DNA from: a virus
Taxonomy: Duplodnaviria; Heunggongvirae; Uroviricota; Caudoviricetes
Virus record (IMG/VR): IMGVR_UViG_3300033144_005510
Strand: one strand, 5' to 3'
Length of the DNA stretch: 64,000 nucleotides
Positions 15,138 through 42,389 of this stretch are shown here, piece by piece. Made by a program: the position numbers and the translations under genes. How positions within the stretch are numbered: position 1 is the first letter of the stretch; each line of letters starts with the position of its first letter. The notes beneath the pieces are model-generated. The model was not told the origin of the DNA. It did not search any database and saw only the letters and a list, made by a program, of their open reading frames with translations.

Positions 15138-15881
15138 CTAACTCTCTTTCTCAAACGAGTTTCGCCAATCATCTTCATAAGGACCAAATTTGGCGTATTC
15201 CTGGTCCTCTTCTCGCGTCCACTCATCAAGCACTGTATTGACCTGCAAAGCTTCAGCATGACTTAGTTCTCTAATGTTGCCATGTTCCCCACAAATCTCT
15301 GTGATAGACTTTTTCACATCAACATTTAGCTTCTTACACATACGATCAATAAACTTGATCTGGGTATCAGTAATACTACCTTCTGTGCGATCTTCATTAC
15401 TAACTTCAGGTACAGTCAATTCCGCTACCTTAGAAGTCTCTTCGGCAGTGAGAACATTGGTAAGGCCCAGGATTCTCTTAGCTGCTCTACCAATAGCCCG
15501 TGTTTCTGCTGTGGCTAGAGGGTATCTATTATAAGGAGCATCTGTATTATTAACGGTACATTCTGCCGACCCAAAAACTTTTACTCCATTGGGCAGGGTT
15601 GGAGCAACAGTAACGGCAGCGTAGTCTACTCCAACATGATGAACTTCTGGACTTCCCCAGTTAACATCACCAACCAGGACACCACATAGACGAACTAAAC
15701 CATCAGCACGAGGACGTTCATTAATAAATTCGTCCTTTGTTAAAAGACTTAACACATAATCAGTCCATTCTGGTGAAAATTTCTCTGGACTAGATTCAGG
15801 TGCATTTGGAGCATCTTCATCAACGGGGGTAAACTCGTCTAAAAAGTCAGCATCAGCAATAGCGCTTTCTTGATCGCTCAT
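15138..15881 (-). CDS. hypothetical acidic protein, 247 aa
   Basis: Long ORF with acidic N-terminus. No motif recognised. Confidence 0.4.
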   Translation of the reverse strand: MSDQESAIADADFLDEFTPVDEDAPNAPESSPEKFSPEWTDYVLSLLTKDEFINERPRADGLVRLCGVLVGDVNWGSPEVHHVGVDYAAVTVAPTLPNGVKVFGSAECTVNNTDAPYNRYPLATAETRAIGRAAKRILGLTNVLTAEETSKVAELTVPEVSNEDRTEGSITDTQIKFIDRMCKKLNVDVKKSITEICGEHGNIRELSHAEALQVNTVLDEWTREEDQEYAKFGPYEDDWRNSFEKES

Positions 15882-16711
15882 TAATTTTCTCCCAAGATAA
15901 TATGACGTTTTCCCTTTTCGGGCTTTTTACGCTTAATTTGTTCTAAAGTCTCTAACACACTAGCTAATATATCTCTTTTATATTTGTTTGTCAATCCCTT
16001 TTTCTGCCTGACTCTAAGTATAACACAGCCCCTACCTAAAAGCAAGCCAGATTTTTCATTGTCTCTTTGTTTGTTTTTTGCTAAGTTATCTGCACCCCAA
16101 ATATTTTCAAAATGGCTGGGTCCGTCAACTTCTAAAGCAACGTTTAATTCAGGAAGATATAGATCAATTTCAAGATTTTCTCTTCCTACCCACTGTTTTT
16201 TGTGAAATTCTATTTTATACCCAGCAGCAATTAATTCATTTAGCAGAAAATGTTCAAGTGCCGATCCTTCTTTAGACGCTTTGCGAACTCCGTCTCCAGC
16301 AGCCTGTCTAAATTGCCTGATTTCTTCCTCTGATTTTGCGTCCCATCTTTTTTTGGCCTCTTCTCTTTTTTTGTCTCTCTGGTCTTCAGTCATATTTTCC
16401 CAGTCTTTAGCTACTGATTCGCTGATCTTTATTTTAGTTTCTTCAGTATGCTTAGTTCCTTTTGTTGGGTGTGAGTGACGACCTGATTGTAAAGCTGATT
16501 TTTGGGCTTCACTCTTGTCTCTTGACTTTATTTCAAATTTTTTTGCATCTCTTCGTACCTTGTTTGCATAAGTTCCACATAACTTTGCTATTTCTGCCCA
16601 ACTGAATTCATATTCAATATATAATTTCTCTAGTACATTTCTTTTTCCGTTTGCTTCTAATGACGAATAAGCATTAACTTCATTCATTAATGATTTTGGT
16701 AATTTCTTCAT
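15881..16711 (-). CDS. homing-endonuclease-like protein: N-terminal NUMOD3 DNA-binding motif plus C-terminal Vsr/DUF559-like endonuclease domain
   Basis: GRHSHPTKGTKHTEETKIKIS matches the NUMOD3 G-x-KHSEETKxKxS signature. C-terminal ...IDLYLPELNVALEVDGPSHF...CVILRV resembles the Vsr-like endonuclease fold, as does ORF 36801..37196. Confidence 0.5.
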   Translation of the reverse strand: MKKLPKSLMNEVNAYSSLEANGKRNVLEKLYIEYEFSWAEIAKLCGTYANKVRRDAKKFEIKSRDKSEAQKSALQSGRHSHPTKGTKHTEETKIKISESVAKDWENMTEDQRDKKREEAKKRWDAKSEEEIRQFRQAAGDGVRKASKEGSALEHFLLNELIAAGYKIEFHKKQWVGRENLEIDLYLPELNVALEVDGPSHFENIWGADNLAKNKQRDNEKSGLLLGRGCVILRVRQKKGLTNKYKRDILASVLETLEQIKRKKPEKGKRHIILGEN

Positions 16712-24616: not shown

Positions 24617-25088
24617 TTTTAATCTTGCTTATAGCCGTTTTAAATGTGTTGTTAGCCCAACCTCTAGAATACCCAAGTTCTTTTCCTATTTCAAAAAACG
24701 TATGCCCCTGCAATCTTAAGTTAATAACAGATTTTTCGTTGTATGTTAACTGTTCAGGTAAATATTCCCAAAAATAAGAATCTATAATTAGATTATCCTC
24801 TAAATACAAATTTTCGTCCATTTGTATTTCTTTTTTATTATTTTTTTTAAGATGCCTTAAAATTTCCCACCGCACATAAAGCCAAATTAAAGTAGAAAGT
24901 TTAGCACGAGACGGATCGTATTTTTTAATAGCTTTCCACATACCAATACGCCCCAGTTGAACAAACTCATCCAACTGTTCTTCATTCTGTGGATTAAAAG
25001 ATTTTGCAACTAAAACAACTAGCCCCATATTATTTTCCATGATGGAGTCTAGTTGTTCTGTTGCAGCATTAGTTAGATCACCACCCAT
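24573..25088 (-). CDS. sigma-70-family (ECF-like) RNA polymerase sigma factor
   Basis: Region-2-like LGRIGMWKAIKKYDP...STLIWLYVRWEI and region-4 HTH SVINLRLQGHTFFEIGKELGYSRGWANNTFKTAISK. Confidence 0.6.
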   Translation of the reverse strand: MGGDLTNAATEQLDSIMENNMGLVVLVAKSFNPQNEEQLDEFVQLGRIGMWKAIKKYDPSRAKLSTLIWLYVRWEILRHLKKNNKKEIQMDENLYLEDNLIIDSYFWEYLPEQLTYNEKSVINLRLQGHTFFEIGKELGYSRGWANNTFKTAISKIKNGNEKKKKENTHSK

Positions 25089-25519
25089 TAAAATGGGATG
25101 TCTTCTCCAGCAGCCCCTGAATCCGCCGTAACTGGCGCTGCCTGTGTTGATTTTTGATCACGAAAATTAGATTCGGAATCTTCAGATTCGGGAGCACGAT
25201 AAAGTCGCTCAAAGTTATTTACTCTAACTTTCAACTTAGAACGCTTCTGTCCATCAGTCTCCCAAGTGTCGAGCTTCAATGCTCCTTGCACTAAAATAGG
25301 ATCTCCGCGATGGAAATATTGCCCTAGAGTATTAGCGCCCGTATCCCATGCTTCACAATCTACATAAGTAGTTTCCTTATCGCGAGTTCCATCAGCACGC
25401 TTAAAATGACGATTTACCGCAATCGTAAAATTAGCGACTTGCGTTTCTCGTCCACCAGCATTGATTTGCCGAACTTCAGGATCGCGGGTGAGATTGCCTT
25501 TTAGAACTACAATGTTCAT
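25088..25519 (-). CDS. ssb: single-stranded DNA-binding protein (bacterial type, C-terminal DIPF tail)
   Basis: OB-fold SSB pattern (KGNLTRDPEVR..., FTIAVNR) and acidic C-terminus ending GEDIPF. Confidence 0.85.
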   Translation of the reverse strand: MNIVVLKGNLTRDPEVRQINAGGRETQVANFTIAVNRHFKRADGTRDKETTYVDCEAWDTGANTLGQYFHRGDPILVQGALKLDTWETDGQKRSKLKVRVNNFERLYRAPESEDSESNFRDQKSTQAAPVTADSGAAGEDIPF

Positions 25520-25557
25520 ACCTTTTCCTCCAAAATAAAAAACAAAAATTAAAAAAT

Positions 25558-25629
25558 AAAAAATGACGGTTTTGTCTTCTCTTCCATCTTAGATAAGAAC
25601 CGTCTGAAACTTACTTTTTTTGATAGAAG
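25558..25629 (-). repeat. conserved structured leader element, copy A (more diverged)
   Basis: Shares AAAAATGACGGTTTTG ... CCATCT..AGAACCGTC ... ACT.AC ... GATAGAAG with copies B-E. On the minus strand it is box + hairpin + U-run, 37 nt upstream of the ssb start. Confidence 0.6.
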
Positions 25630-25640
25630 TAGTTTATCAT

Positions 25641-25668
25641 AATATACTCTAAAAACTGAATATGTCAA
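25641..25668 (-). promoter_or_regulatory. sigma-70-like promoter (TTGACA-16-TATATT) reading into element A and ssb
   Basis: Minus-strand TTGACA (plus 25663-25668) and TATATT (plus 25641-25646), 16-nt spacer. Confidence 0.4.
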
Positions 25669-27368
25669 GTCAATTGCCACATTTTTTTAACAATCAAACT
25701 ATCGCTATTTCTTGATCTATCTCCACTAACAAGAACAGTATTTTCCGCAACACAAATTCCTTTACTGCGAATTTCATCCCAGTCATTTGGAAATATTACG
25801 CAGTCCATAGAGCATTCGCCGTCACTAACAGTAACAAAAGCCATTTCCTGTTCATTGTTTCTAGTAATATGGGTTTTTATTTCGTCGATTTGACAAGCAA
25901 TAAAAATTCCGCTAGTTTTTTCCTTATGTTTCTGAAATTCTAAAATAGTGCAATTTGCTTGATCCGCATTTTTGCAACCATCTAGAATTGAAGCAGTAAT
26001 GGAAATTCCGAGTCTGGCTTCTTCTACCCTAGCAATCCAATCGGGAGCATCCCTTAAAGCATAAGGCGGATTTACAACTAAGCTTAAAATGTCTTTCATT
26101 TTCTGTATTCTGTTTTTATTAGCACACGGACCCTTTACTTTTTTATCAGGGTTATCATGTCGTTTTAATGATTCTTCCAATATTTGTTTTAGCGAACTGG
26201 CATTTTTTATATTCTGCTTAATCCACGCATGTTCTTTATTTGTTAATTTGGAATATTGTTCATAATCAAATAACATTTGCGTTCTTGCTGTTTTTAAATA
26301 GTCTAAAGCTCCTGCTTCAATCATACCAGCTACTACAGTGCTACCTACATCTTGCGAAAAATATACAAGAAAATCGGTCCATGACCAATCTTTGCGAGGG
26401 CGATTAATTGCTGTTTCTGCAAGATAAATTGCATTAGCAACTTTTACGACAGCGCTTTTCCCGATTCCTTTAATATTAGAAAGACCGAAATAAATTTTGT
26501 CATCATAAGGATTATATGTTGGTTGTCCTGGTACAGAATTCGAGATACGTTTAAAATGTTCATTGGCGTATCTAAAATCTGGGGGGTAGATATTAATACC
26601 CATGACTCTAGCATTAGCAACTAGTAATTTGATTTCATCAAACTTCTTCTGCTTATCTTTGGCATACCATAGATATGAAGTAAAGAATGATGCTGGAAAA
26701 TGTGCTTTTGCATAAGCAGATAAATAACCATTCATTGCATAAGATACTGAGTGGCTTTTATTAAAAGAATATCGTTGTGATTTTTCGATCTGATCCCACA
26801 GCTCTTGGGCTTCTTCTTTATTTAGAATTCCTTGTTTTTCACACCCTTCAAGAAACTCATTTTCAAGCTTGGCCATAATGTCGGCCTTTTTCTTACCAAT
26901 AGCTTTACGAAGTACATCAGCTTGTTGGAGATCAAAGCCAGCAATATCCTGGGCAATTCTCATTGCCTGCTCCTGGTAAATCATTTCACCAAAGGTTGGC
27001 GAAAGAATAGGTTCTAGAGCAGGATGTGAGATTGTAACTTCTTCTAGACCGTTTTTTCTATCCATGTAATGCTCGGCAATATTCTTACCGTCACGAATAG
27101 ATTGGATACATCCAGGTCTTAGGATTGCAGATAGAGCTGCAAGCTGCTCAATATTTTCTGGTTTGAGCTTTTTAGCGTATTGTTGGCCGAATCGTGTTTC
27201 TAGTTGGAATACGCCTTTGGTATTACCTTCACCAATTAAATCCCAAGTTCTTTGGCAATTAAGAGGAAGATCAAAATCCCACTTTAGCTTGACTGGCGGC
27301 CCTTCTTCCTCAACTTCAAATTTGCAGCCACACTCAAAATATGCATAACCATTCTTAATCTCGATCAT
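25665..27368 (-). CDS. dnaE: DNA polymerase III alpha subunit, C-terminal fragment (fingers / HhH region)
   Basis: KGVFQLETRFGQQYAKKLKPENIEQLAALSAILRPG matches the DnaE finger motif (GVFQLES...ALxRPGP). Confidence 0.8.
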   Translation of the reverse strand: MIEIKNGYAYFECGCKFEVEEEGPPVKLKWDFDLPLNCQRTWDLIGEGNTKGVFQLETRFGQQYAKKLKPENIEQLAALSAILRPGCIQSIRDGKNIAEHYMDRKNGLEEVTISHPALEPILSPTFGEMIYQEQAMRIAQDIAGFDLQQADVLRKAIGKKKADIMAKLENEFLEGCEKQGILNKEEAQELWDQIEKSQRYSFNKSHSVSYAMNGYLSAYAKAHFPASFFTSYLWYAKDKQKKFDEIKLLVANARVMGINIYPPDFRYANEHFKRISNSVPGQPTYNPYDDKIYFGLSNIKGIGKSAVVKVANAIYLAETAINRPRKDWSWTDFLVYFSQDVGSTVVAGMIEAGALDYLKTARTQMLFDYEQYSKLTNKEHAWIKQNIKNASSLKQILEESLKRHDNPDKKVKGPCANKNRIQKMKDILSLVVNPPYALRDAPDWIARVEEARLGISITASILDGCKNADQANCTILEFQKHKEKTSGIFIACQIDEIKTHITRNNEQEMAFVTVSDGECSMDCVIFPNDWDEIRSKGICVAENTVLVSGDRSRNSDSLIVKKMWQLT

Positions 27369-27442
27369 ATTACAAAAGTCCTACAACAAAAAATAACCAA
27401 ATAAAATAAAAGGTATACTTCTATTATACTCTATTTTTCAAA

Positions 27443-28159
27443 TTATGCCATAGCATTTTTGAATTTTACTTTAGAAGATGTTCGTCTATGCAATCTCAAG
27501 AATTTTTGGATTACCAGTGCTTCATCTCGAACATCGTTTAAAGCATCATGAGCGCCATGACCAGACATACCAAAGAATTTTCTCAATTCGTCCATACTGT
27601 ATGATTTAGGCTCTGGCAGATTTTCAAACCAGTAGAAAGCCATTTCCATAATATCAATACAATCTCTTGGATTAAAGATTTTTTGCTCTTCTTCTTTAGT
27701 AATATATCCGAACCGCTCGCAAAGCCGATCTGCAATCACGTTATCGAAGCGTCTAATATTAATGCCTGCTCGAATAGGTGCGGTAAATCGGCTTCTACGA
27801 GACTGGTTCTTATTATAAATTAAAAGGTAATTTGTGAAATCATCCCAGACTTGCTTTTGTTCAGGAGCATCCAACCATGTTTGGTAAATGCCTTGATCAG
27901 CTTTATCGCGATCTTCCTGAGTTAAGTCGTCATAATTCTCTGTGTAGTTCTTGGCGTGCCAACGAATGGTATCACAATGTTTTTCAAAATAATCTTTTTC
28001 ATCTATACCTTGAGGCCTCATCCAAGAACAAAATTCTGAATTGTCAACAATCTCTAAAGTAATTGGATTGATCATGCAAGCCGCAATTTGTACTGGCTCG
28101 CATTTTTTAGGATTACTTCCATCAGTTTCAAAATCGTATACACAAACAAAGTTCTTCAC
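27443..28159 (-). CDS. DEDDh 3'-5' exonuclease (DnaQ/epsilon-like). Likely GTG start at 28159, not the track's ATG at 28282.
   Basis: Exo I VCVYDFETDG and Exo III HGAHDALNDVRDEA. AAGGAA RBS 7 nt before GTG. The track's K-rich N-terminus comes from the antisense frame of a GAAGAAGCT repeat. Confidence 0.65.
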   Translation of the reverse strand: MKNFVCVYDFETDGSNPKKCEPVQIAACMINPITLEIVDNSEFCSWMRPQGIDEKDYFEKHCDTIRWHAKNYTENYDDLTQEDRDKADQGIYQTWLDAPEQKQVWDDFTNYLLIYNKNQSRRSRFTAPIRAGINIRRFDNVIADRLCERFGYITKEEEQKIFNPRDCIDIMEMAFYWFENLPEPKSYSMDELRKFFGMSGHGAHDALNDVRDEALVIQKFLRLHRRTSSKVKFKNAMA

Positions 28160-28178
28160 AATATATTCCTTATTAAAT

Positions 28179-28847
28179 TTATTCTTCTTCTTTTTCTTCC
28201 TCGGTTTCAGCTTCTTCAGCTTCTTCAGCTTCTTCAGCTTGGATTTTTCCAGCAACCATTTCTTTAATTTCTTCTTGCACATCCTTAAAAACGCCTAAAA
28301 AATATTCTTCATCTTTTTCTTCAGGTTCAAGTGTTTCTTCAGTAAGTATATTCACTGATGGTTCGTTTGGCAACATTTCACCAATGTGAGATTCAGAATC
28401 TCCTGATATTACTTTCGTACTCCAATCAAGTGACAATCTATCTTTAGGATCATTTGTATTTTGTGCTACTACAAACAACCCCTGTCTTTTTTTTGTTACT
28501 ACGTACTCAGATAATCCGTTGTTTTCGTAATAAAAAATGCCACCTAATTCAAGGTCGCCAGCAGATGTGTCGTAATTCATTATAATTTCTTTCTTTAATT
28601 TTAAAGGTTCGGATTCAGGTTCAGGCTCTGGATCTTCTTCTACCAAAATTACTTCAGTTGATTCATCCATCATAGTGAAATTTTGCTTTGTCGTAACCCA
28701 TGAGCAATTATATCCAGGTGAACAACAGCTTTTATTACGCTTTTTCAGCTTTGTAAAAACAGTATCCTCTTTAACATCGTTTAATATTAGATTTTTCCAG
28801 TCAACGACATAGAATTCGTCGTTTATATCAAGCTCTTGAAATTTCAT
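28179..28847 (-). CDS. hypothetical acidic protein (222 aa) with AEE-repeat C-terminus; carries the IKEMVAGKIQ motif shared with the giant virion protein
   Basis: ORF between the dnaE halves. C-terminal (AEE)n is encoded by the simple repeat at 28207-28240. Confidence 0.45.
   Translation of the reverse strand: MKFQELDINDEFYVVDWKNLILNDVKEDTVFTKLKKRNKSCCSPGYNCSWVTTKQNFTMMDESTEVILVEEDPEPEPESEPLKLKKEIIMNYDTSAGDLELGGIFYYENNGLSEYVVTKKRQGLFVVAQNTNDPKDRLSLDWSTKVISGDSESHIGEMLPNEPSVNILTEETLEPEEKDEEYFLGVFKDVQEEIKEMVAGKIQAEEAEEAEEAETEEEKEEE
28207..28240. repeat. simple sequence repeat (CTTCTTCAG)n
   Basis: cttcttcagcttcttcagcttcttcagc. Encodes (AEE)n in the minus frame of ORF 28179..28847 and a spurious K-rich N-terminus in another frame. 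Confidence 0.8.
28239..28268 (-). repeat. 30-nt exact repeat, copy 2 (inverted)
   Basis: Reverse complement of 5933-5962. Confidence 0.8.
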
Positions 28848-30744
28848 TTATTTCTCCTAAGCATAAATCTTGTTGAACACCCATAGCTTTATCTAGAGCA
28901 GTAATTCCTAAAACGTCAAATTTAATTCCGCCGACGTTTTCCAAGTCTTCCATTTCTAAACCAGCTATTTGTCTTCCGCTTTCTGTATCTAAAACCATGG
29001 GACACATATTCGCCAATGGTTCTGGAGCAATAACAACCCCAGCAGCATGTTTAGATTGAACTGTTTTAGTACCTTCTAATCTAATGGCTTGTTCAAATCT
29101 AGGTGCTAATGGGCCTGTTAATTTTCCGCTATCTTCAATTCTACACCATTCAGAAAGTTTATCAGGAGTATTTTCCAAACACCATTTAATGATTGAAGAT
29201 TCTCCCTGATCCTCTTTCATCTTCTGTAATTCATCCGCAATCTTTTGTTCTTCAATAATATTTTTAGTGATTTTATTCATTTCTTCAAAAGGAATTCCGC
29301 CATAAGCACGCAAAACATCCTTAATTGCCCCACGTCCCTTCATGGTCGTAAATGTAATCATTTGGCCGACATTCTGCTCTCCATACGTATCTCTCATATA
29401 CTGAATAACGTGTTCGCGAGCATATTTGGGAACATCCATATCTACATCTGGCATAGATACTCTGCCTCCCGTGTTACGACCAGCATTATAAAATCTTTCA
29501 AAAATTAAGTCAAAAGGCATAGGATCAATTGAAGTAATACCCAAAAGATAAGATACTAGACAACCAGCAGCGGAACCTCGTCCAGGTCCAGGCAACCATC
29601 CGCTTTTTCGCACGAAATCTATAATATCTGCAACAATTAAGAAATAACTAGATAGCCCTGCTCCTTGCAGAACCGCCATCTCTTTCTCGATTCTCTGAAC
29701 ATATTCTGGATGCTTCTCTTTGGGTACTACGTTTTGAATCTTCTGCCTCCAACCTTCTCGACACAAATGACGTAAATACTCCTCTGGATTCATCCCGTCT
29801 GGACAGGGGAAATTTGGAAGCATTGGTGGACGTAGAATGTTTTTGTATTCCTCTACCCTGGCTGCAAAAAGATTTGTGTTGTCCAGTTCCTCTGCCGTAT
29901 GCCATTGACGCATCTCCTCATATGATGGAATATGGTATTGATTAGATTTGAAAAATGTTCCAAGTCCAAATTCAGGCCTATTAGCCTGTTGGATAGTGGT
30001 TTTCATATTAGAACATAGTAGAATTCTTTGGTCTTGTGCGTCTTCTTTGCGAGCATAATGAGCATCAGGAGTAGCAACGCATGGAATTCCAGTATCTTTA
30101 CTAATTTCTCGAATACAATCAGCAACAATCTTTTGAGTTGGGTTTAGCACACAATCCATTAACTGAACTTCTAAAAAGAAATTATCTTTACCAAATGTAT
30201 CACTAAACCATCTTGCTAAACGGGTGCCTTCTGTTTTCCAGTGATTGGAAATCTCACCATCTTCATCAAATAGAACGTTGGCCATATTAGATCCTAAATG
30301 ACCACTAAAAGCCATTAAGTTTCCTTTTTGTGCAAATGGTTCTATTTGTTTTAAACTTAGGCGTGGTTTATGATAGAAATGATCCTTTTGGTTAGCCATA
30401 GAGACCATTTGTACTAAATCTCTCCATCCTTGATCATTGCGAGCAATTACGCACAAATGAGCCAATTTCCTGTTACGATCATTCTTCACATCGGCATTTT
30501 CTTTACAGATGTAAAACTCACATCCTAAAAGAGGCTTTTTACCAGACCTATTCATCTGTGATAGAAACTGAATGTGCCCACTCATAGAACCATGGTCTGT
30601 CAGAGCAGAACCTTCAGAACCTATTTCTTCACAACGAGAAGAGATATCTTCTGGTTTGCTAAGACCGTCGAGTAGGCTGTAGTGAGAATGAACGTGTAAC
30701 GGAAAATATTTACTCATTAATAACCACCGTAAATCTAGTATCAA
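28828..30744 (-). CDS. dnaE: DNA polymerase III alpha subunit, N-terminal fragment (PHP + palm)
   Basis: PHP motif LHVHSHYSLLDG and palm GPGRGSAAGCLVSYLLGITSIDPM...PDVDMD, closely matching E. coli DnaE. Confidence 0.85.
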   Translation of the reverse strand: MILDLRWLLMSKYFPLHVHSHYSLLDGLSKPEDISSRCEEIGSEGSALTDHGSMSGHIQFLSQMNRSGKKPLLGCEFYICKENADVKNDRNRKLAHLCVIARNDQGWRDLVQMVSMANQKDHFYHKPRLSLKQIEPFAQKGNLMAFSGHLGSNMANVLFDEDGEISNHWKTEGTRLARWFSDTFGKDNFFLEVQLMDCVLNPTQKIVADCIREISKDTGIPCVATPDAHYARKEDAQDQRILLCSNMKTTIQQANRPEFGLGTFFKSNQYHIPSYEEMRQWHTAEELDNTNLFAARVEEYKNILRPPMLPNFPCPDGMNPEEYLRHLCREGWRQKIQNVVPKEKHPEYVQRIEKEMAVLQGAGLSSYFLIVADIIDFVRKSGWLPGPGRGSAAGCLVSYLLGITSIDPMPFDLIFERFYNAGRNTGGRVSMPDVDMDVPKYAREHVIQYMRDTYGEQNVGQMITFTTMKGRGAIKDVLRAYGGIPFEEMNKITKNIIEEQKIADELQKMKEDQGESSIIKWCLENTPDKLSEWCRIEDSGKLTGPLAPRFEQAIRLEGTKTVQSKHAAGVVIAPEPLANMCPMVLDTESGRQIAGLEMEDLENVGGIKFDVLGITALDKAMGVQQDLCLGEINEISRA

Positions 30745-31219
30745 AATGTTTTACAAAAATAGGCTTAATTTCTTCCCAATCAATATTAGATGGAGCAGAC
30801 ATTAAAACTCTGTCCCAACCCATCGTATCTACAAGTTTTTTCATTACTTCGCAAGACAAAGAAATGGTTTCTTTATCTGGAGTATTTTTAAATTCTTCTC
30901 TAGTTGGAAATGCTGTAATAAATGTTAAATCAACATTTCCTTCAAGTTCCTCTGGCTGATTTTTTCTTTTAAGAAAAGTTGGATTGCACATAACTCCATC
31001 GGCATTTAAACCTGTTACAAGTCTATGTCCCCAGGTTTCACACAATCCTTCAAATCTTTCTTTGAACTCTTGCTCAATACCTGTTTCCATCACCAGCATT
31101 CCATTTCCTCTAACACTTTTAGTGATATCACACACGATTGCATCATAAGGCTCTTCAGCATTACCGTTTTCATTATAAACTTCGTCCCAAAAATTGCAAT
31201 CTTTTTTTTCGATAATCAT
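30710..31219 (-). CDS. hypothetical protein, 169 aa
   Basis: ORF only. Confidence 0.3.
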   Translation of the reverse strand: MIIEKKDCNFWDEVYNENGNAEEPYDAIVCDITKSVRGNGMLVMETGIEQEFKERFEGLCETWGHRLVTGLNADGVMCNPTFLKRKNQPEELEGNVDLTFITAFPTREEFKNTPDKETISLSCEVMKKLVDTMGWDRVLMSAPSNIDWEEIKPIFVKHFDTRFTVVINE

Positions 31220-32319
31220 TTGGTTTCTTCCTTTACTTCACCTGGAGCATCATATTTATTAATATCATGTCCTTTAGCAGACATATTTTTTATAACAGAA
31301 TTCATGGATCTATTCTGTAAACAATATTTGGTTTGTTCACACTTAGTCATACATTGACCTTTTGGGGTCACTTCTCCCTCTCTACGCTCAATAATCGGTT
31401 TGATATGAGTATCTTCAAAAGTCGTTGTTCCATAATGACAAAATTTAGTACATTTCCAAGACTTATTTAACGCTGGCATTTCACTGTTTTTAATATCTTC
31501 AAATTTTTCCTTTAACATATTCTCGATTTTTGGAATATCACTTCTGGAAAAACAGATAGTAAAAGGACCACCATCGTTTATAAAATAAATTACAATCTGA
31601 ATATTTTCAATGTCTGGATAGAGATGTTGAGCAGCGTAGTAGTAAAGCATTAATTGCGGGTCTTTGTTTAATGCCGCATAATCCTTTTCCTCTCCAGTTG
31701 CCCAATTTAATCTTCTTCCAGTTTTCCAATCTAAGATTTGGTATGTCTCGTCATCAATTTTACTAATTTGATCTATCGTACCTTTTAAGGCCAAGAATCC
31801 TTCTACAGTATCTCCATTAGGAAGTTCGTACTCATACATTGCCCAAGGTTTATTTACTTCGAAATCAAAAGCCTGTTCGGCTTTAACCATCTCAGAGTTT
31901 CTAGGATCAAACTCTCCGTCTCGATATTCAAGAGCCTTGTACGTCCATTGAAAACAGTGCTTCCTGTCTATCGGCTTCCATTTATGAATAGAGTAATGGA
32001 CATAGTAGTCATAACATTTACCAATTAGATCATCTACATCATAATCGGAAACGTCTACCGTGCCCACAACATCGTCTTCAAAAGTGTCCGCACCAAGCTG
32101 TTGCTGTAACTTAATTTCACCAAGAATCTCTAGAACCTTATGAACAATAGTGCCTTTCTCGGCTTTAATATTGCTCGGCCCTTTCCAACCTAAATTATAT
32201 TCAAGAAAATATTTCATCGGACACATCTCGTGGGAGCCGTAAGAGCTACTACGAAGATATGTAATAATCATTTTACCTCTATGTTTTCTGGAACCTGTAT
32301 AGCATCCATCCACTCCCAT
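31216..32319 (-). CDS. Cas4/RecB-family PD-(D/E)XK exonuclease with Fe-S cysteines
   Basis: N-terminal LRSSSYGSHEMCP (Cas4-type S-x-S...C), ILDWKTG motif III, C-terminal C-x-x-x-C...C...C cluster. Confidence 0.6.
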   Translation of the reverse strand: MGVDGCYTGSRKHRGKMIITYLRSSSYGSHEMCPMKYFLEYNLGWKGPSNIKAEKGTIVHKVLEILGEIKLQQQLGADTFEDDVVGTVDVSDYDVDDLIGKCYDYYVHYSIHKWKPIDRKHCFQWTYKALEYRDGEFDPRNSEMVKAEQAFDFEVNKPWAMYEYELPNGDTVEGFLALKGTIDQISKIDDETYQILDWKTGRRLNWATGEEKDYAALNKDPQLMLYYYAAQHLYPDIENIQIVIYFINDGGPFTICFSRSDIPKIENMLKEKFEDIKNSEMPALNKSWKCTKFCHYGTTTFEDTHIKPIIERREGEVTPKGQCMTKCEQTKYCLQNRSMNSVIKNMSAKGHDINKYDAPGEVKEETK

Positions 32320-33068
32320 TGGTGGAGTATTTGATACAAGGCTTGGTTTTGATCGGAAATACTCATTTCAGCATTATCAATAATAGCATCAAAGTTATTC
32401 CAATCGTAATTTTCCTTATCCAAGGCCAACTCACTTGCATGAGCATCGCTGGAATGTTGACCACGAGTCAACCTAATTACTTTTCCTCCTCTTTTTTTGA
32501 CTGCTTCAACTTCATTGGGAAATCTACAGTCTGTAATCACAGCCATTTGGCTGCCATGTTCCGTAATTCTATTTAGAGTTCCTTCGGCCCAGACAGGCTC
32601 ATAAATCTTACGAAAGAACTCAGTTCCTACAAACTGCATAACTTCTCTTGCAGTCATAGCTCCTTCTGTTTTTTGACCTTCAACACTTTTAGGCATATCT
32701 TCCCATTTTAAATGGGTTGCTTCATTCTTGTTCTGATCAGTGCCGTAACATTGATCATGAGTTAATCCCAAGAGGTTAATGCACACATCTCGTTTCAGGC
32801 AGTCGGCAAAGCTATAGCTTTTAATAAAAGGCCAAACAAATTCTGCACAAAATTCTCTCACGGTATTGTTATTTCTATCAACGTCAAAAATGCCTTCATA
32901 AGCATCGTCTCCGAAGATATCACTGATCCAAAGTCTTCCATCTGTTCTAACTTCGATTTTTTCTCGGACAACAGCGAGTTTTAGCATTTCAATACCAAGT
33001 AAAAAATTAAAAGATGTGTTTTTACCTGACTGTTTTCTTCCACAAAGTGCTAGAATTTTTTGACTCAT
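32268..33068 (-). CDS. deoxynucleoside monophosphate kinase (T4 gp1-like)
   Basis: P-loop ALCGRKQSGKNT and C-terminal block ITDCRFPNEVEAVKKRGGKVIRLTRGQHSSDAHASE parallel T4 gp1. Confidence 0.6.
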   Translation of the reverse strand: MSQKILALCGRKQSGKNTSFNFLLGIEMLKLAVVREKIEVRTDGRLWISDIFGDDAYEGIFDVDRNNNTVREFCAEFVWPFIKSYSFADCLKRDVCINLLGLTHDQCYGTDQNKNEATHLKWEDMPKSVEGQKTEGAMTAREVMQFVGTEFFRKIYEPVWAEGTLNRITEHGSQMAVITDCRFPNEVEAVKKRGGKVIRLTRGQHSSDAHASELALDKENYDWNNFDAIIDNAEMSISDQNQALYQILHQWEWMDAIQVPENIEVK

Positions 33069-34264
33069 ATCCCTAAATCTTTCTTTACTTGTTTAATAAC
33101 TGGAGATAATTTTGCTTTAATTACTTCCACTTCATTATCAGCAATATCGCCTTGGCCAATTTTTGGTTCGTAGATTTTATAACTATTTCCACAGGACTTA
33201 CGAATACCCTTTGCAGCTATTCTACCCGCTTCATCGGGGTCTGTCAACACAATTAATGATAAAGCACCAGATCTATCTAAGATATGTCTTTGGCCGTCCG
33301 TTAAATGCGCACCAAATGTAGCTAAGGAAGTATGAAAACCAGCTTCTTCTAATCTCCAAACATTACCAGGACTTTCAACAATTATAGCATATCCTTCTTC
33401 GGCGATACGGTCTTTTGCAAACCAATAATTATATAAATAGTCCTCGCCTTTAAACCCGTGATTATGCTTCCATTTACAGAACTTCCATTTAGACCTTGTG
33501 TCTGGGCAGGAGTGAGAGGGATTGTGGTAAGTTTCACACAAAGGACAAGCGTCCCAAATAGATCTACCAGTACAGCCTATTACCATTTCATGGTTATCAT
33601 CATAAATAGGAGCGACTGCCCTCATAGACATTTCTTTGCCAGGGGTTGTACATAACCCGACATCATATTTTTCTAAAATTTCAGAAGAAAAACCTCGGCT
33701 TATAAAGTATTCAGAGGGAATGCTTAATCCTTTAGTAACAGTTTCTCTTGGTAGGTTTAAGCTTTTCTTTGGTTCGTCCCTAGCATAGATATTTTTCATT
33801 TGACTGCTAAATTTTTGTCTTTCGATGGCAGCAAAATCAATTTCAATATCTGAAAAATTATCAGTATTACCAGTAAAAGCTTGTAAAAATTTCACAGCTT
33901 CTGGAAAAGGGCATTCTTTTTCTACATCTTTTTTATCGCCCCAACCATACTTCGTTCTTGATAAATAACCTCTAATAAAACCAATTAATGTTGGATGGAA
34001 ATGCTCATGGCAACCATGAGAAAAACATCTCCAATTACCTATGATTTGATCTCCAGTATGGAAAATATTAAAAGCGCTTTTTCCTCCTCCTCCATGGACA
34101 GGACAAGCCCCAACGTAATACCTAGAAGTTCTACGCATAGATTCTTTTAAACCAAGGTATTCTAAAAGATCTTCTAATTTTTCGCCTGCTGCTTTATCCA
34201 ACACTTGGAGCAGGCCTTGGTTATGAACTCTTTTATTCGAACGGGATTTGGTCATCGTTATCAT
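33065..34264 (-). CDS. DnaG-type DNA primase (zinc-binding domain + TOPRIM)
   Basis: CPVHGGGGKSAFNIF zinc-ribbon region and TOPRIM IIVESPGNVWRLEEAGF...DPDEAG. Confidence 0.7.
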   Translation of the reverse strand: MITMTKSRSNKRVHNQGLLQVLDKAAGEKLEDLLEYLGLKESMRRTSRYYVGACPVHGGGGKSAFNIFHTGDQIIGNWRCFSHGCHEHFHPTLIGFIRGYLSRTKYGWGDKKDVEKECPFPEAVKFLQAFTGNTDNFSDIEIDFAAIERQKFSSQMKNIYARDEPKKSLNLPRETVTKGLSIPSEYFISRGFSSEILEKYDVGLCTTPGKEMSMRAVAPIYDDNHEMVIGCTGRSIWDACPLCETYHNPSHSCPDTRSKWKFCKWKHNHGFKGEDYLYNYWFAKDRIAEEGYAIIVESPGNVWRLEEAGFHTSLATFGAHLTDGQRHILDRSGALSLIVLTDPDEAGRIAAKGIRKSCGNSYKIYEPKIGQGDIADNEVEVIKAKLSPVIKQVKKDLGI

Positions 34265-35687
34265 CTTCTACCACCACAAAGTTATCGCCAATGTTATTTA
34301 GTAAAGCGGGGTCAATCTCAATAAGTTGAGCCTTATATTTATTCATTTGAGCATTCACATACTCTCCAAAATCGTGACCAGGACCATAACGTGACAAAAC
34401 AGTCACCATCTTTCTATTACCTAGTTCTGGCCCATCCTCAGCAATTTCTTCTTCTGACTTATGCTTTAAGATGGAGAAGCTTGTGCAAAACCATGTTAAT
34501 CTATCAGAACCAGATACAACTGCCGACGTTTCATTGTCAATACCATCTCTATTCAACTGCGTAAAAGCTAGAATTGGTACTGCGTACCGTGTTCCAAAAT
34601 TTTGTAATGCGGTCATCATCATTCCAAGCATCTGGAATTCTCGGACTGCATCGTTAACACCCTCCATATCCATCATTTTTAGGTAATCGTAAATAATGAC
34701 ACATTCCTTTGCGGTGCCATCTGGGTTTAAGCCTACAGTAGACTGTACCCATCTACGAATAACATAAAGCTGATCTTCAAATGGCTTTCCAGCAATATCA
34801 ATACGATAAAGAGGAGACTTCGCTATTTGTTCGGCTGCATCGTGAACATTAGCCCTAGCAGCAGGAGAATCAGAAAATGCTCCAGTTTTAATGTCTTTGA
34901 TATCTTGGCCACTAATAGAGGCCAATAATTTATCGGAGATGTCTCGATACCTACCCTTTTCGATCATTTCTGTGTCAACGTAGAGAACTGGAACACCAGA
35001 TTTTGCGATATTGTACGCAACATTAATTGATAACGTTGTTTTACCAACTTTGGGTCTGGCTCCAATCATAGCTACACCAGGATTAAGACCACCACCAATT
35101 GATTCGTCAAACTGAGGGAACCCTGTACTAACACCGATTTGTTGACATGGGTTGTCTTCAAGATATTTAACATACTCTTCAATCCCATCGCCAACTTGAG
35201 TAGGCTTTAATTCGCTCTCACCGTCGAACATTGAAGTAAAGTCGAAGATTGTATTTTCCGCAATGCCTAATAATTCAGACACAGCTTCTGTTCCATCAAT
35301 CTCAGACATCTTCTCTTGAAGAAGAGCACCCTGGTCATGAATAAGTCTAGCAATTTCTAGTCGTCTTAGTTTACCAGCAAATCTACGAACATTTTGAGGA
35401 ACTGTTCTAAGTGCTAGAATACTGCTTAAATGCTTTGCTTCTTCTTTTCGTTCTAAAATATGGTCTAGTTGCAGTTCTTTTGCAGCAGAAAGAATAGAGG
35501 GCAGGTCTACAACTGCACCATCTTCTTTGCATATGTGTTCAAGACATTTAAAGATGACCTTATTAGAATCGACTGCAAATGTATTAACCTTTACCAAATC
35601 TGTAATATCCAAAAATAAATCACCGCCATGTTGGCAAATACCTGCCAATACAGCTCTTTCCGCAGCAACATCTTGAACTACTGACAT
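34233..35687 (-). CDS. dnaB: replicative DNA helicase DnaB
   Basis: N-terminal ERAVLAGI box, Walker A GARPKVGKT, ILAFTQLNRDG. Confidence 0.8.
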   Translation of the reverse strand: MSVVQDVAAERAVLAGICQHGGDLFLDITDLVKVNTFAVDSNKVIFKCLEHICKEDGAVVDLPSILSAAKELQLDHILERKEEAKHLSSILALRTVPQNVRRFAGKLRRLEIARLIHDQGALLQEKMSEIDGTEAVSELLGIAENTIFDFTSMFDGESELKPTQVGDGIEEYVKYLEDNPCQQIGVSTGFPQFDESIGGGLNPGVAMIGARPKVGKTTLSINVAYNIAKSGVPVLYVDTEMIEKGRYRDISDKLLASISGQDIKDIKTGAFSDSPAARANVHDAAEQIAKSPLYRIDIAGKPFEDQLYVIRRWVQSTVGLNPDGTAKECVIIYDYLKMMDMEGVNDAVREFQMLGMMMTALQNFGTRYAVPILAFTQLNRDGIDNETSAVVSGSDRLTWFCTSFSILKHKSEEEIAEDGPELGNRKMVTVLSRYGPGHDFGEYVNAQMNKYKAQLIEIDPALLNNIGDNFVVVEDDNDDQIPFE

Positions 35688-40921: not shown

Positions 40922-41103
40922 TAATTATGTAATTCTTTATTTTGAGCTTGATCGTCCCAAAAATCTTCTTTTTCTATATGACCATTCGTATACGCACAAA
41001 AACAGCACCATCCATTGCCATCAAAATATTCAATATATTCGTCTTCTAATAATCCACAATCGTGACAAGTTATAGGAGATTGACACACTTTTCTATTAAT
41101 CAT
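40903..41103 (-). CDS. small Cys-rich protein, 66 aa
   Basis: CHDCG...CCFC pattern. Confidence 0.3.
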   Translation of the reverse strand: MINRKVCQSPITCHDCGLLEDEYIEYFDGNGWCCFCAYTNGHIEKEDFWDDQAQNKELHNYFRKQK

Positions 41104-41662
41104 TTCTAACGCCCATCATCAATTTATAATGCTTAGGAATATAAGGCAACCATTCTGCCTGTAACATTTGCCAAGGTGCAAGTCCTAGTACGTAACTTCT
41201 TGGGTTTGGTTTTACTGGTTGTTTAAGTAGGACCAAATCCGTATCACTCAAAGGTTTATCTGCTTTTTTATGATTACATGGGTAGCAAGATGTAACAATA
41301 TTTTCCCATTTTGTTGGAGAACCTTTATATCTCCATTTACATTTAGGTATAACGTGATCGAATGTCAATTCTTCTATATTAAATTTAACACCACAATACT
41401 GACATGTCAACCTGTCTCTAATAAAAACATTCTTTTTTGAGAATGCCACATTCTTTTTAGCTGAAGGAACGTATTTTTTCAGTGTTACTACGGCGGGAAC
41501 TGGATGGTGGCTTCCGTCAGCCAGAAGTATATAATCTTCTTTATAATATTCTACCACACTTATGCTATTTTTGTAATGCAGAATCATAGCATCTTGCCAA
41601 GAAATAATTCCTATAGCAGAATAGTCCGCATTTAACACCAAACATCGTCGATGCTTACGCAT
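41096..41662 (-). CDS. HNH endonuclease
   Basis: CQYCG...FDHVIPKCKW...CYPCNHKK. Confidence 0.7.
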   Translation of the reverse strand: MRKHRRCLVLNADYSAIGIISWQDAMILHYKNSISVVEYYKEDYILLADGSHHPVPAVVTLKKYVPSAKKNVAFSKKNVFIRDRLTCQYCGVKFNIEELTFDHVIPKCKWRYKGSPTKWENIVTSCYPCNHKKADKPLSDTDLVLLKQPVKPNPRSYVLGLAPWQMLQAEWLPYIPKHYKLMMGVRND

Positions 41663-42389
41663 ACAGCTTTCCTAAATATTCTAAAAAATTGTCCTTAATG
41701 CCTTTGTATTTCTTTTGCTCGTCAGTCATTCCCATACAGGACTTGTATAAATCTGGAAGAATGGGGTCGACTATATATTGCCGTAAAATAAACAAAAAAC
41801 ACCCTAATTCGGGTAGGGGATAAGTTATTTGTTTTTCTACCTTAACTTTTATAAAAGGTTTCTTTGGATTAAATTCGGCTTTTGGCAGATCTGGATGGAA
41901 ATTAATCTTATCTTCAAAAATCGGCGACCAGACAAATCTTTGAAATGGCCCTTGTTTACTGGCAAGCTCCGCTACTTTGTAACTATTGTCTAAATTGATT
42001 CCAGGGATCGAAGCATGTATCTCACTAAGAGGTTTACCTATTTTTTCTTCTGGTCTCCAACTAGAAGGGAAACAGATATGAGTAGCCTCAAGGCAATCCC
42101 TACCATTAAATGCCGAATGTACAGCAATATCTTCCTGCAATTGCATTGCTATATTGGAAAAGGTATAAGGCTTTTTTACCCAGTCCGCATGTTCTTTTAC
42201 AATATCTTGAAGGCGAGTTAAAACACGACTTAAAAGAAAAGTATTGTTTGATAGATAGACCTGTTGATTCTCACAAGCCTTTTTCTTTTCTGCTATATAA
42301 TGCTCGTAATTTTCATCACGAACAAATGGAGACTGATCCAGCTTCTCCAGCTGTGGTAAAACACTATAACCTTTTTGATATGGATGCAT
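41655..42389 (-). CDS. hypothetical protein, 244 aa
   Basis: ORF only. Confidence 0.35.
   Translation of the reverse strand: MHPYQKGYSVLPQLEKLDQSPFVRDENYEHYIAEKKKACENQQVYLSNNTFLLSRVLTRLQDIVKEHADWVKKPYTFSNIAMQLQEDIAVHSAFNGRDCLEATHICFPSSWRPEEKIGKPLSEIHASIPGINLDNSYKVAELASKQGPFQRFVWSPIFEDKINFHPDLPKAEFNPKKPFIKVKVEKQITYPLPELGCFLFILRQYIVDPILPDLYKSCMGMTDEQKKYKGIKDNFLEYLGKLYA

Follow-up and report, generated by a model that had tools for sequence, protein, structure and literature searches.

A DnaE-type polymerase gene split at the palm/fingers boundary around a DEDDh exonuclease gene in a family of uncultured aquatic tailed phages

C-family DNA polymerases are the replicases of bacteria and are drug targets, and to our knowledge their catalytic subunits are treated as single chains unless an intein rejoins them. 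Split inteins are known from fractured genes in ocean metagenomes, where their N-terminal parts measure 88–123 aa (PMC2677866). In Aeromonas phage Aeh1, the nrdA gene is a set of ‘genes-in-pieces’, and the fragmented enzyme depends for its activity on tails that arose at the break (PMC3045599). The B-family polymerase of phage phiKZ consists of an N and a C subunit, for which a stable 1:1 complex has been demonstrated experimentally (PMC13648687). Split phage polymerases are also known in family A. Within family C, T4-like jumbo phages encode a split ‘minimal’ Pol III alpha as two proteins (PMC7824862), and polymerase and exonuclease are joined in PolC by insertion of the exonuclease domain into the PHP domain and in some Bacteroidetes DnaE1 by fusion to the N-terminus (PMC3919608). 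Here we describe a dnaE gene in two pieces, dnaE-N and dnaE-C, that are separated by genes for a DEDDh 3'-5' exonuclease and an acidic 222-aa protein. The locus lies in a 64,000-nucleotide stretch of tailed phage DNA (Caudoviricetes; IMG/VR record IMGVR_UViG_3300033144_005510), referred to below in its entirety as the window.

The four genes are tightly packed on the minus strand (Table 1). A first-pass annotation, made from the letters of the sequence, had read them as one dnaE divided at gene level, its PHP/palm and fingers portions lying in separate genes on either side of a DEDDh exonuclease. That reading stands, as the two halves give complementary alignments to the Taq and E. coli enzymes and the arrangement is family-wide. 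The four open reading frames (ORFs) also hold in place, although the starts of dnaE-N and of the exonuclease had to be corrected, and the motifs quoted for them are all present (PDVDMD in the N-half, GVFQLE and RPG in the C-half, and VYDFETDG and HGAHDALND in the exonuclease). The sizes of 567 and 222 aa were right, while the 638-aa N-half shortens to 629 aa.

Table 1. Positions of the split dnaE locus and of other features in the window.
Feature	Position	Strand	Matches and remarks
dnaE-N (629 aa; PHP, palm, thumb)	28828..30717	-	Pfam PHP and complete DNA_pol3_alpha
dnaE-N C-terminal tail: helix LDKAMGVQQDL and ~10 extra residues to the polypeptide end at the break	28828..28893	-	
Acidic 222-aa protein	28179..28847	-	No Pfam match; SH3-like N-terminal domain
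DEDDh 3'-5' exonuclease (238 aa)	27443..28159	-	Pfam RNase_T; phrog_192 ‘DNA polymerase exonuclease subunit’
dnaE-C (567 aa; fingers, HhH, OB)	25665..27368	-	Pfam DNA_pol3_finger, HHH_6, weak OB
Split-specific N-terminal extension of dnaE-C: predicted beta-meander, F-x-C-G-C-x-F and C38	27234..27368	-	
SSB, conserved downstream neighbor of dnaE-C in the replication module	25088..25519	-	Pfam SSB 1.6e-26; syntenic in related loci
Upstream replication module: PD-(D/E)XK nuclease, deoxynucleoside monophosphate kinase, Toprim primase, DnaB helicase	31216..35687	-	Pfam and PHROG
HODM_asu-like gene and two HNH/homing-endonuclease-like genes, listed together	41655-42389, 41096-41662, 15881-16711	-	

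The two halves complement one another along the length of a single DnaE. dnaE-N matches PHP (E = 7e-32, profile positions 2–162 of 164) and the whole of DNA_pol3_alpha (E = 1.4e-70, positions 1–260 of 260), and dnaE-C matches DNA_pol3_finger (E = 1.1e-45, profile positions 24–166), HHH_6 (E = 3.9e-7) and, weakly, an OB fold. When aligned with solved structures, dnaE-N covers residues 6–625 of Taq Pol III alpha and dnaE-C covers 637–948, continuing weakly to ~1091; in E. coli DnaE the corresponding ranges are 5–562 and 582–852. The halves are thus adjacent and non-overlapping, with nothing duplicated and nothing lost, and this excludes an origin from two independent polymerases. The break falls at E. 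coli DnaE residues 563–581, after the strand that holds the third catalytic Asp (KFDVLG, D610) and the helix that follows it. By the domain limits established from the published E. coli DnaE structure, this is the palm/fingers boundary.

Each half retains the residues expected of its part of the enzyme. The catalytic Asp triad lies in dnaE-N, with D433 and D435 in MPDVDMD and D610 in KFDVLG (numbered in the 638-aa ORF); these motifs align with PDFDVD and KFDFLG of E. coli (D401, D403 and D555), and the three residues are invariant across 23 homologues. All nine PHP metal-ligand positions are filled in the alignment to Taq (H17, H19, D26, H51, E76, H96, H149, D227 and H229) and are conserved in the viral family, several of them having been lost in E. 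coli. dnaE-C has the finger motifs LRKAIGKKK and YSFNKSH, in which R154, K155, G158, K159, K160, F202, N203 and H206 are invariant or nearly so. Its AlphaFold (AF2) model, built from a 49-sequence alignment, has a mean predicted local distance difference test score (pLDDT) of 91.4 and a predicted template modeling score of 0.84, and in Foldseek it superposes over ~550 columns on the Pol III alpha subunits of M. tuberculosis, Taq and E. coli. The PHP domain of dnaE-N is uninterrupted, the OB fold is C-terminal, where PolC has it ahead of PHP, and dnaE-N matches PolC structures only weakly (1e-15 vs 1e-82 for DnaE). The core features of a C-family DnaE (Asp triad, PHP, fingers, HhH and OB) are all in place, but not on a single polypeptide.

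In fold, in domain order (PHP-palm-thumb-fingers-HhH-OB), in its Asp triad and in having a separate DEDDh proofreader, the system resembles the E. coli-type Pol III core of alpha (DnaE), epsilon (DnaQ) and theta, and with its nine PHP ligands it resembles Taq and M. tuberculosis DnaE1, which have an active PHP site. It differs from the E. coli core in that alpha is two polypeptides and in having no tau-binding domain: dnaE-C ends just past the OB fold, with predicted strands up to residue 565 of 567, and its alignment stops near residue 1091 of the 1220 in Taq. No internal clamp-binding motif is recognizable either, and the small partner is an SH3-like beta-barrel, whereas theta is helical.

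The reading we favor, to which we give a probability of about 0.8, is that the locus encodes a non-covalently assembled two-chain DnaE-type replicase with a separate DEDDh proofreader, in an uncultured aquatic tailed phage. The dnaE gene would be permanently broken at the palm/fingers boundary, with dnaE-N contributing PHP, the palm with its three catalytic Asp, and the thumb, and dnaE-C contributing the fingers with their deoxynucleoside triphosphate (dNTP)-binding motifs, the HhH duplex-binding domain and the OB fold. Both chains would be made from one tightly packed, co-oriented gene block and would reassemble non-covalently into a DnaE-shaped enzyme, neither half having a complete active site alone. 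Assembly would probably proceed through the native palm-fingers interface, probably aided by tails present in split forms only, namely the C-terminal tail of dnaE-N and the beta-meander of dnaE-C with its Cys triad. Proofreading would fall to the exonuclease encoded in the gap, in the way that epsilon serves alpha in E. coli; the PHP site, for its part, retains all of its metal ligands. The SH3-like Cys-Cys protein, which in this phage is enlarged, acidic and 222 aa long, would be an accessory and not a tightly co-evolving core subunit. The multi-subunit C-family replicase proposed in the first-pass annotation has conserved motifs, purifying selection and family-wide occurrence in its favor, and from these we infer the physical assembly. 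phiKZ PolB and Aeh1 NrdA are experimental precedents for reassembly without a covalent link.

The layout of the gene block, once its starts are corrected, counts as support for this two-chain reading through its signals of translational coupling (stop/start overlaps and Shine-Dalgarno sequences). dnaE-N starts at ATG 30717 and not at TTG 30744, which agrees with the 629 aa of its homologues, and this start gives it an 8-nt overlap with the stop of the gene upstream. The ATG of the acidic ORF is preceded by GGAG and overlaps the dnaE-N stop by 20 nt. The exonuclease starts at GTG 28159, just past the stop of the acidic ORF and with an AAGGA Shine-Dalgarno sequence 8 nt upstream. This makes it 238 aa long and not 279, since homologues align only from residue ~44 and the gene of the nearest relative is 238 aa. 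A Lys-rich 41-aa extension of the exonuclease that overlapped the acidic ORF was rejected as an ORF-calling artefact, and the overlap disappears with the GTG start. A 74-nt spacer separates the exonuclease stop from the start of dnaE-C, and in total 1.46 kb, with the two other genes inside it, lies between the dnaE halves.

Aeh1 nrdA is the closest conceptual precedent, as there too inserted DNA divides the gene of an essential enzyme and novel C- and N-terminal tails arise at the break. It differs in that its gap holds a homing endonuclease rather than a proofreading exonuclease and a small protein, and in that it is known from a single phage, while the dnaE split is ancient and spans >140 clusters at 50% identity. 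The tails are found here as well. The last residue of dnaE-N that can be aligned to Taq or E. coli is 617 of 638 (L617, D618, K619 and M621 are invariant), and beyond the alignable region dnaE-N has a tail of ~10–21 residues and dnaE-C a head of ~20–30. From KFDxLG to GVFQLE the distance is 56–62 residues in bacteria, 49–53 in the rare intact viral relatives and 62–105 in split forms, and the extra residues of the split forms are the short dnaE-N tail and the N-terminal extension of dnaE-C. The ends of the halves are homologous across loci.

The dnaE-C extension carries the clearest marks of the split state. The motif F-x-C-G-C-x-F, with C13 and C15, occurs in 54 of 56 split loci but in neither intact relatives nor bacteria, and the Asp of the bacterial IPLDD motif is replaced by Cys (C38) in split forms only. 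C13, C15 and C38 are invariant in 49 C-halves. AlphaFold predicts the extension as a three-stranded beta-meander (strands 2–5, 8–10 and 16–21; pLDDT 83–90), with the CGC between strands and C38 at the start of helix 39–46. Cys residues placed in this way on a beta-meander are typical of structural zinc sites, and on the model the triad is plausibly a structural metal site. Three positions in dnaE-N, D238, N424 and E551, also track the split state.

The arrangement is common to a very large phage family known only from metagenomes. Our literature search, which covered few subscription journals, found no intein-free, full-length DnaE split at the palm/fingers boundary with a proofreader gene inside, and the arrangement is undescribed in the literature searched. 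Among 5.8 billion proteins, the best 120 matches to the N-half (56–93% identity) are all 571–659 aa long with PHP and pol3_alpha only, and the best 120 matches to the C-half are all stand-alone C-halves, some of them with inteins. In an exhaustive search of 50%-identity cluster representatives, ~144 of the 150 nearest are likewise N-half only (36–57% identity). One related viral locus came from a single-protein scan of viral contigs, and an alignment query gave the rest. The first-pass annotation had suggested a search for split dnaE in related phages, and all 38 distinct related IMG/VR loci with at least 8 kb downstream have the N-half, the exonuclease and the C-half in this order, with a median gap of 898 nt. 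This recurrence is far beyond chance. Contigs of the family come from JGI, ENA, Tara (including the <0.22 µm fraction), NCBI and Logan, and reach 150–240 kb. The region had no megablast match in 50,697 phage genomes, and tblastn against phage genomes returned intact DnaE only, at ≤34% identity, which indicates that the family has no cultured relative. From 185,579 prokaryotic species genomes the family is absent, the best match being at 36% identity and always an intact cellular dnaE. Identity to cellular DnaE is 30–36% (32–36% in the species-genome scan), with no prophage or host clue.

Both halves are under purifying selection. Relative to the nearest relative (L173), the ratio of nonsynonymous to synonymous substitution rates (dN/dS) is 0.047 for dnaE-N, 0.022 for the exonuclease and 0.055 for dnaE-C, and values of 0.02–0.06 indicate strong purifying selection on all three. 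Together with the retained catalytic and dNTP-binding motifs, this excludes decay of either half. Fragmented dnaE calls that arise from frameshifts are common in draft genomes (PMC3919608), and an assembly, sequencing or gene-calling artefact, or a recent pseudogene, would be the most mundane account of two ORFs. Yet two complete conserved genes intervene, dozens of independent metagenomes show the architecture, the loci share a homologous break site and selection is strongly purifying. The first-pass annotation had already dismissed a frameshift artefact on account of the intervening genes, and we see next to no chance of an artefact or pseudogene here.

Protein trans-splicing by a cryptic or atypical split intein would make the mature enzyme a single chain again. 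Split-intein dnaE is known from cyanobacteria and from metagenomic fractured genes (PMC2677866), a member of the same family (L171) has a genuine dnaE split intein, and inteins are common elsewhere in the family. The locus in the window shares with these systems its two genes and, with the fractured type, an intervening gene. Unlike them, it has no intein halves at the break, its break site is different, and its product must stay as two chains. There is no intein at the break because the tails of ~10–21 and ~20–30 aa are far too short, published split-intein N parts being 88–123 aa (PMC2677866). No Hint or Intein_splicing domain of Pfam matches either half. No Cys, Ser or Thr follows the N-extein, and no terminal Asn with a nucleophile stands at the C-half junction, while the conserved CGC lies inside the beta-meander and belongs to the confidently folded C-half. 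Pfam, Rfam and the gap genes also gave no sign of the intein or homing-endonuclease remnants whose search had been proposed, and the gap between the halves of the window has no homing-endonuclease domain. Trans-splicing is thus very improbable.

Genuine inteins do occur in this family. L171 (1730-6407) has a dnaE with a split intein at the finger motif YSFNK/SH (the slash marks the junction), its N piece ending ...YSFNK/CLDPTT... and its C piece reading ...VAVSN/SHGISY. A free-standing 303-aa Vsr/DUF559-like ORF lies between the pieces, and the exonuclease gene is directly upstream. Judged by these junctions, L171 is of the ‘fractured gene’ type (PMC2677866), and by contrast it shows what the break in the window is without. 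Probable inteins are found in N-halves near residue 395, near GPGRGSAAG (P0127, P0129, P0132, P0137, P0145, P0175 and P0182), in N-halves near residue 70, in PHP (P0140, P0148 and P0167), and in the C-half (P0122, P0363, P0377 and others), and some inteins of the family have LAGLIDADG domains. Those of the N-half were recognized from lengths of 950–1421 aa and interrupted alignments, and those of the fingers are backed by Pfam intein matches. Selfish elements seem to gather preferentially in the polymerase of this family.

The halves might instead be rejoined at the level of RNA, if the 1.46 kb were spliced out as an intron that carries ORFs or if ribosomes skipped over it. Group I introns are frequent in phage polymerase genes, and the dnaE of a cultured Bacillus phage is annotated as two coding sequences around a small ORF. 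However, a permissive Rfam E-value scan of 25000-31500 found no intron family, with a chance microRNA match as its only return, and the gap exonuclease has its own Shine-Dalgarno sequence and start and is an independent gene elsewhere in relatives with intact dnaE. The gap ranges from 0.7 to 6.9 kb across loci and holds unrelated cargo, which also speaks against such repair, and we consider RNA-level repair a negligible prospect. The Bacillus phage is Jayan (PQ299153.1, a cultured member of Herelleviridae; L172:3480-6887), in which a DnaE-like polymerase is annotated as two coding sequences (410 and 634 aa) separated by a 76-aa ORF. This polymerase is broken elsewhere, around residue 410, and an exonuclease gene follows directly downstream. 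The interruption in Jayan may be an intron or a homing-endonuclease remnant.

The exonuclease in the gap matches RNase_T in Pfam (E = 2e-7) and phrog_192 in PHROG. Its catalytic residues D9, E11, D139, H204 and D209, which make up Exo I (DxE), Exo II (D) and Exo III-epsilon (Hx4D), do not vary among 21 diverse homologues. A profile search against structures returned a 195-aa exonuclease (6e-12), the PolC exonuclease domain (1e-9) and DnaQ (8.5e-5), with no clear preference for epsilon. By homology it is presumed to be the proofreading subunit. At its C-terminus (window 27443-27520) is a conserved basic tail, R..a.K.KFK(G/N)(S/A)F, that is also found in orthologues from phages with intact dnaE, and this KFK(G/N)(S/A)F tail is a candidate for a peptide that docks on the polymerase or on a clamp.

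The exonuclease gene does not need the break to be retained. Some sister phages share the synteny of the replication module and have an intact dnaE, and in two of them, L167 and L168 (P0124 and P0122), the orthologous exonuclease (38–43% identity, with the C-terminal tail shared) lies 3 kb downstream between two glycosyltransferase genes; in L170 and L171 the exonuclease is just upstream of dnaE. Because relatives with intact dnaE keep an orthologue elsewhere, the exonuclease can be counted, by orthology, among the replication-module genes of this lineage, for which a place inside dnaE is one arrangement among several. The echo of PolC suggested in the first-pass annotation is a superficial analogy. 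The exonuclease of PolC lies inside PHP (PMC3919608), while here it is a separate polypeptide and, in intact relatives, encoded elsewhere. What the phages have in common with PolC and with the Bacteroidetes DnaE1 is the coupling of a C-family polymerase with a DEDDh exonuclease; in contrast to both, the coupling is at the gene level only, falls at the palm/fingers boundary and is not obligatory. The phage arrangement would be a third, independent way of associating polymerase and exonuclease.

The acidic protein (isoelectric point 4.24; 56 Asp and Glu against 23 Lys and Arg) consists of an SH3-like domain at residues 1–70, an acidic linker, a beta region predicted with low confidence, a disordered stretch and an acidic helical tail, and its SH3-like domain has an invariant Cys41-Cys42. 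Most relatives have in its place, between dnaE-N and the exonuclease, an ORF of 57–63 aa with an invariant Cys-Cys pair, and a profile of these small ORFs matches residues 1–70 of the 222-aa protein. Neither the acidic nor the small proteins have a single Pfam or PHROG match, even at E=10, and a PF26909 tag on two homologues of the acidic/small protein was not reproduced in a local search. By this profile match, the acidic protein is a lineage-specific, hypervariable and enlarged version of a ~60-aa SH3-like protein. It has only 30% identity to its counterpart in L173 (4462-5202), though the flanking genes are 90–98% identical and the layout is retained; this divergence could be due to diversifying selection or cassette exchange.

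A role for the acidic protein as a core co-evolving subunit was rejected, given 30% identity between near-identical phages. The first-pass annotation had wondered whether it was a clamp or processivity factor or an assembly factor. Nothing supports a clamp, the conserved part being a small SH3-like domain, and an obligatory assembly factor is at odds with a family that is absent from several split lineages and hypervariable here. Because the small SH3-like Cys-Cys protein is hypervariable and is missing both from several split lineages and from those intact-dnaE loci that were examined, comparison across the family makes it an accessory, fast-evolving factor, neither a clamp nor an obligatory assembly subunit.

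A different possibility is that the halves no longer cooperate as a polymerase. dnaE-N could, for example, be a PHP nuclease or nucleotidyltransferase in its own right and dnaE-C could bind DNA, with a host polymerase or one encoded outside the window replicating the genome. The window covers only part of the genome, and in one relative (P0241) the N-half is fused to an unrelated SLOG domain. Furthermore, in T4-like jumbo phages the split minimal Pol III alpha stands beside a PolB that is probably the main replicase (PMC7824862). The jumbo-phage proteins resemble ours in being a C-family catalytic module made as two phage proteins, but they are without PHP and other domains, are split inside the nucleotidyltransferase core, are encoded by distant genes and coexist with PolB, whereas the locus in the window encodes a full-length DnaE in adjacent genes of a replisome module, broken after the third catalytic Asp. 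Every polymerase-specific motif is kept in both halves at a dN/dS of ~0.05, the halves are always adjacent and co-oriented within a helicase-primase-SSB module, and intact orthologues fill the same slot in sister phages. In addition, the 64 kb contain no further gene of polymerase size that has a polymerase domain. Loss of cooperation is accordingly improbable in our estimate. Phage replicative polymerases made as N and C subunits include phiKZ PolB and the split gp43 of some T4-like phages; phiKZ differs in that its polymerase belongs to family B and not C, its exonuclease domain is within the N subunit, and its genes are not adjacent.

The two-chain replicase also has to be weighed against observations that do not favor it. 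At the position after HhH where bacterial outgroups carry the clamp-binding sequences QADMF, QRSIF and QLGLF, the viral family has no canonical beta-clamp-binding motif (QxxLF-like) and instead a longer, different segment, although a divergent motif may lie elsewhere; nor are there clamp or clamp-loader genes among the neighboring ORFs. The 74-nt spacer ahead of dnaE-C holds a promoter-like site, so that strict co-translation of the halves is not guaranteed, although promoter and terminator scans gave nothing above shuffled expectation. Several split lineages do without the small protein, which is also hypervariable here, so that it is not essential for assembly. Finally, the lack of a second polymerase applies to the 64-kb window, and the rest of the genome is outside view.

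The history of the split can be read in more than one way. In neighbor-joining trees of the N-half (143 taxa) and of concatenated N- and C-halves (74 taxa), the viral family is monophyletic with respect to 13 bacterial DnaE (100% bootstrap), with a weakly resolved backbone. Only 2% of bootstraps group all split forms together, and 76% place the intact P0122/P0124 pair within the split radiation. Contrary to the trees, the intact forms keep a short, bacterial-like junction that looks ancestral. The sequences favor neither a single ancient split followed by re-fusions nor repeated, independent splitting.

The gap between the halves has also taken up a range of cargo. In L054 (10929-17134) it holds five metabolic genes as a cassette, encoding an aldehyde dehydrogenase, a DDAH-like (amidinotransferase-like) protein, a class-III aminotransferase and UDP-glucose dehydrogenase-like and saccharopine dehydrogenase-like proteins. 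In L039 (11725-14788) it encodes DUF1501, DUF1559 (with a prepilin-type N-methylation motif) and ThyX, and in L058 (11057-13561) a protein of 834 aa with RCC1 repeats. For some members, DUF1501 together with DUF1559 gives a hint of hosts in Planctomycetota or Verrucomicrobiota. The fusion partner of the N-half-only DnaE in P0241 is a C-terminal, circularly permuted YpsA SLOG domain (Pfam, E = 1.6e-35).

A more elaborate version of the two-chain reading can be proposed tentatively, although we think it unlikely to hold as a whole. It would be a four-part C-family core of alpha-N, alpha-C, the DEDDh proofreader and the SH3-like protein, in which the Cys triad forms a metal clasp that replaces the palm-fingers link and is completed by a ligand from a partner, such as D238 of alpha-N or the Cys-Cys pair of the small protein. 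Across a large, global clade of aquatic phages, the gene would have toggled between split and intact states more than once, and the gap would serve as a landing pad for cargo.

Around the locus, all genes of the window from 14.7 to 64 kb are on the minus strand, and the order of the genes in the upstream replication module is the same in relatives with split and with intact dnaE. The coding strand switches near 14.4 kb, and on the other side are two giant plus-strand ORFs of 1958 and 2223 aa (146-6022 and 7661-14332) that have no Pfam or PHROG match. A 417-aa TnpB/Cas12f1-like protein is encoded at 58815-60068 on the minus strand (a transposase in PHROG, with a Cas12f1-like TNB domain in Pfam), and its gene adjoins a minus-strand tRNA cluster of Arg-TCT, Asp-GTC and Ile-TAT at 60162-60397. 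The window also encodes two HNH/homing-endonuclease-like proteins and an HODM_asu-like protein (haem-dependent oxidative N-demethylase alpha-like), which is a possible auxiliary metabolic gene.

Overall, this locus indicates that DnaE tolerates a permanent break just past the third catalytic Asp, and does so across hundreds of divergent phage lineages. It offers a natural two-piece DnaE for studies of fingers-palm communication and of hand-off to the exonuclease, as well as a candidate metal-stabilized docking module, and the paired split and intact orthologues in syntenic genomes amount to a ready-made comparative experiment. There is also a consequence for annotation, as pipelines label both halves ‘DNA polymerase III subunit alpha’ or drop them as fragments. 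Such mislabeling hides a marker of a major uncultured phage group that is present in Tara Oceans, freshwater and other metagenomes.

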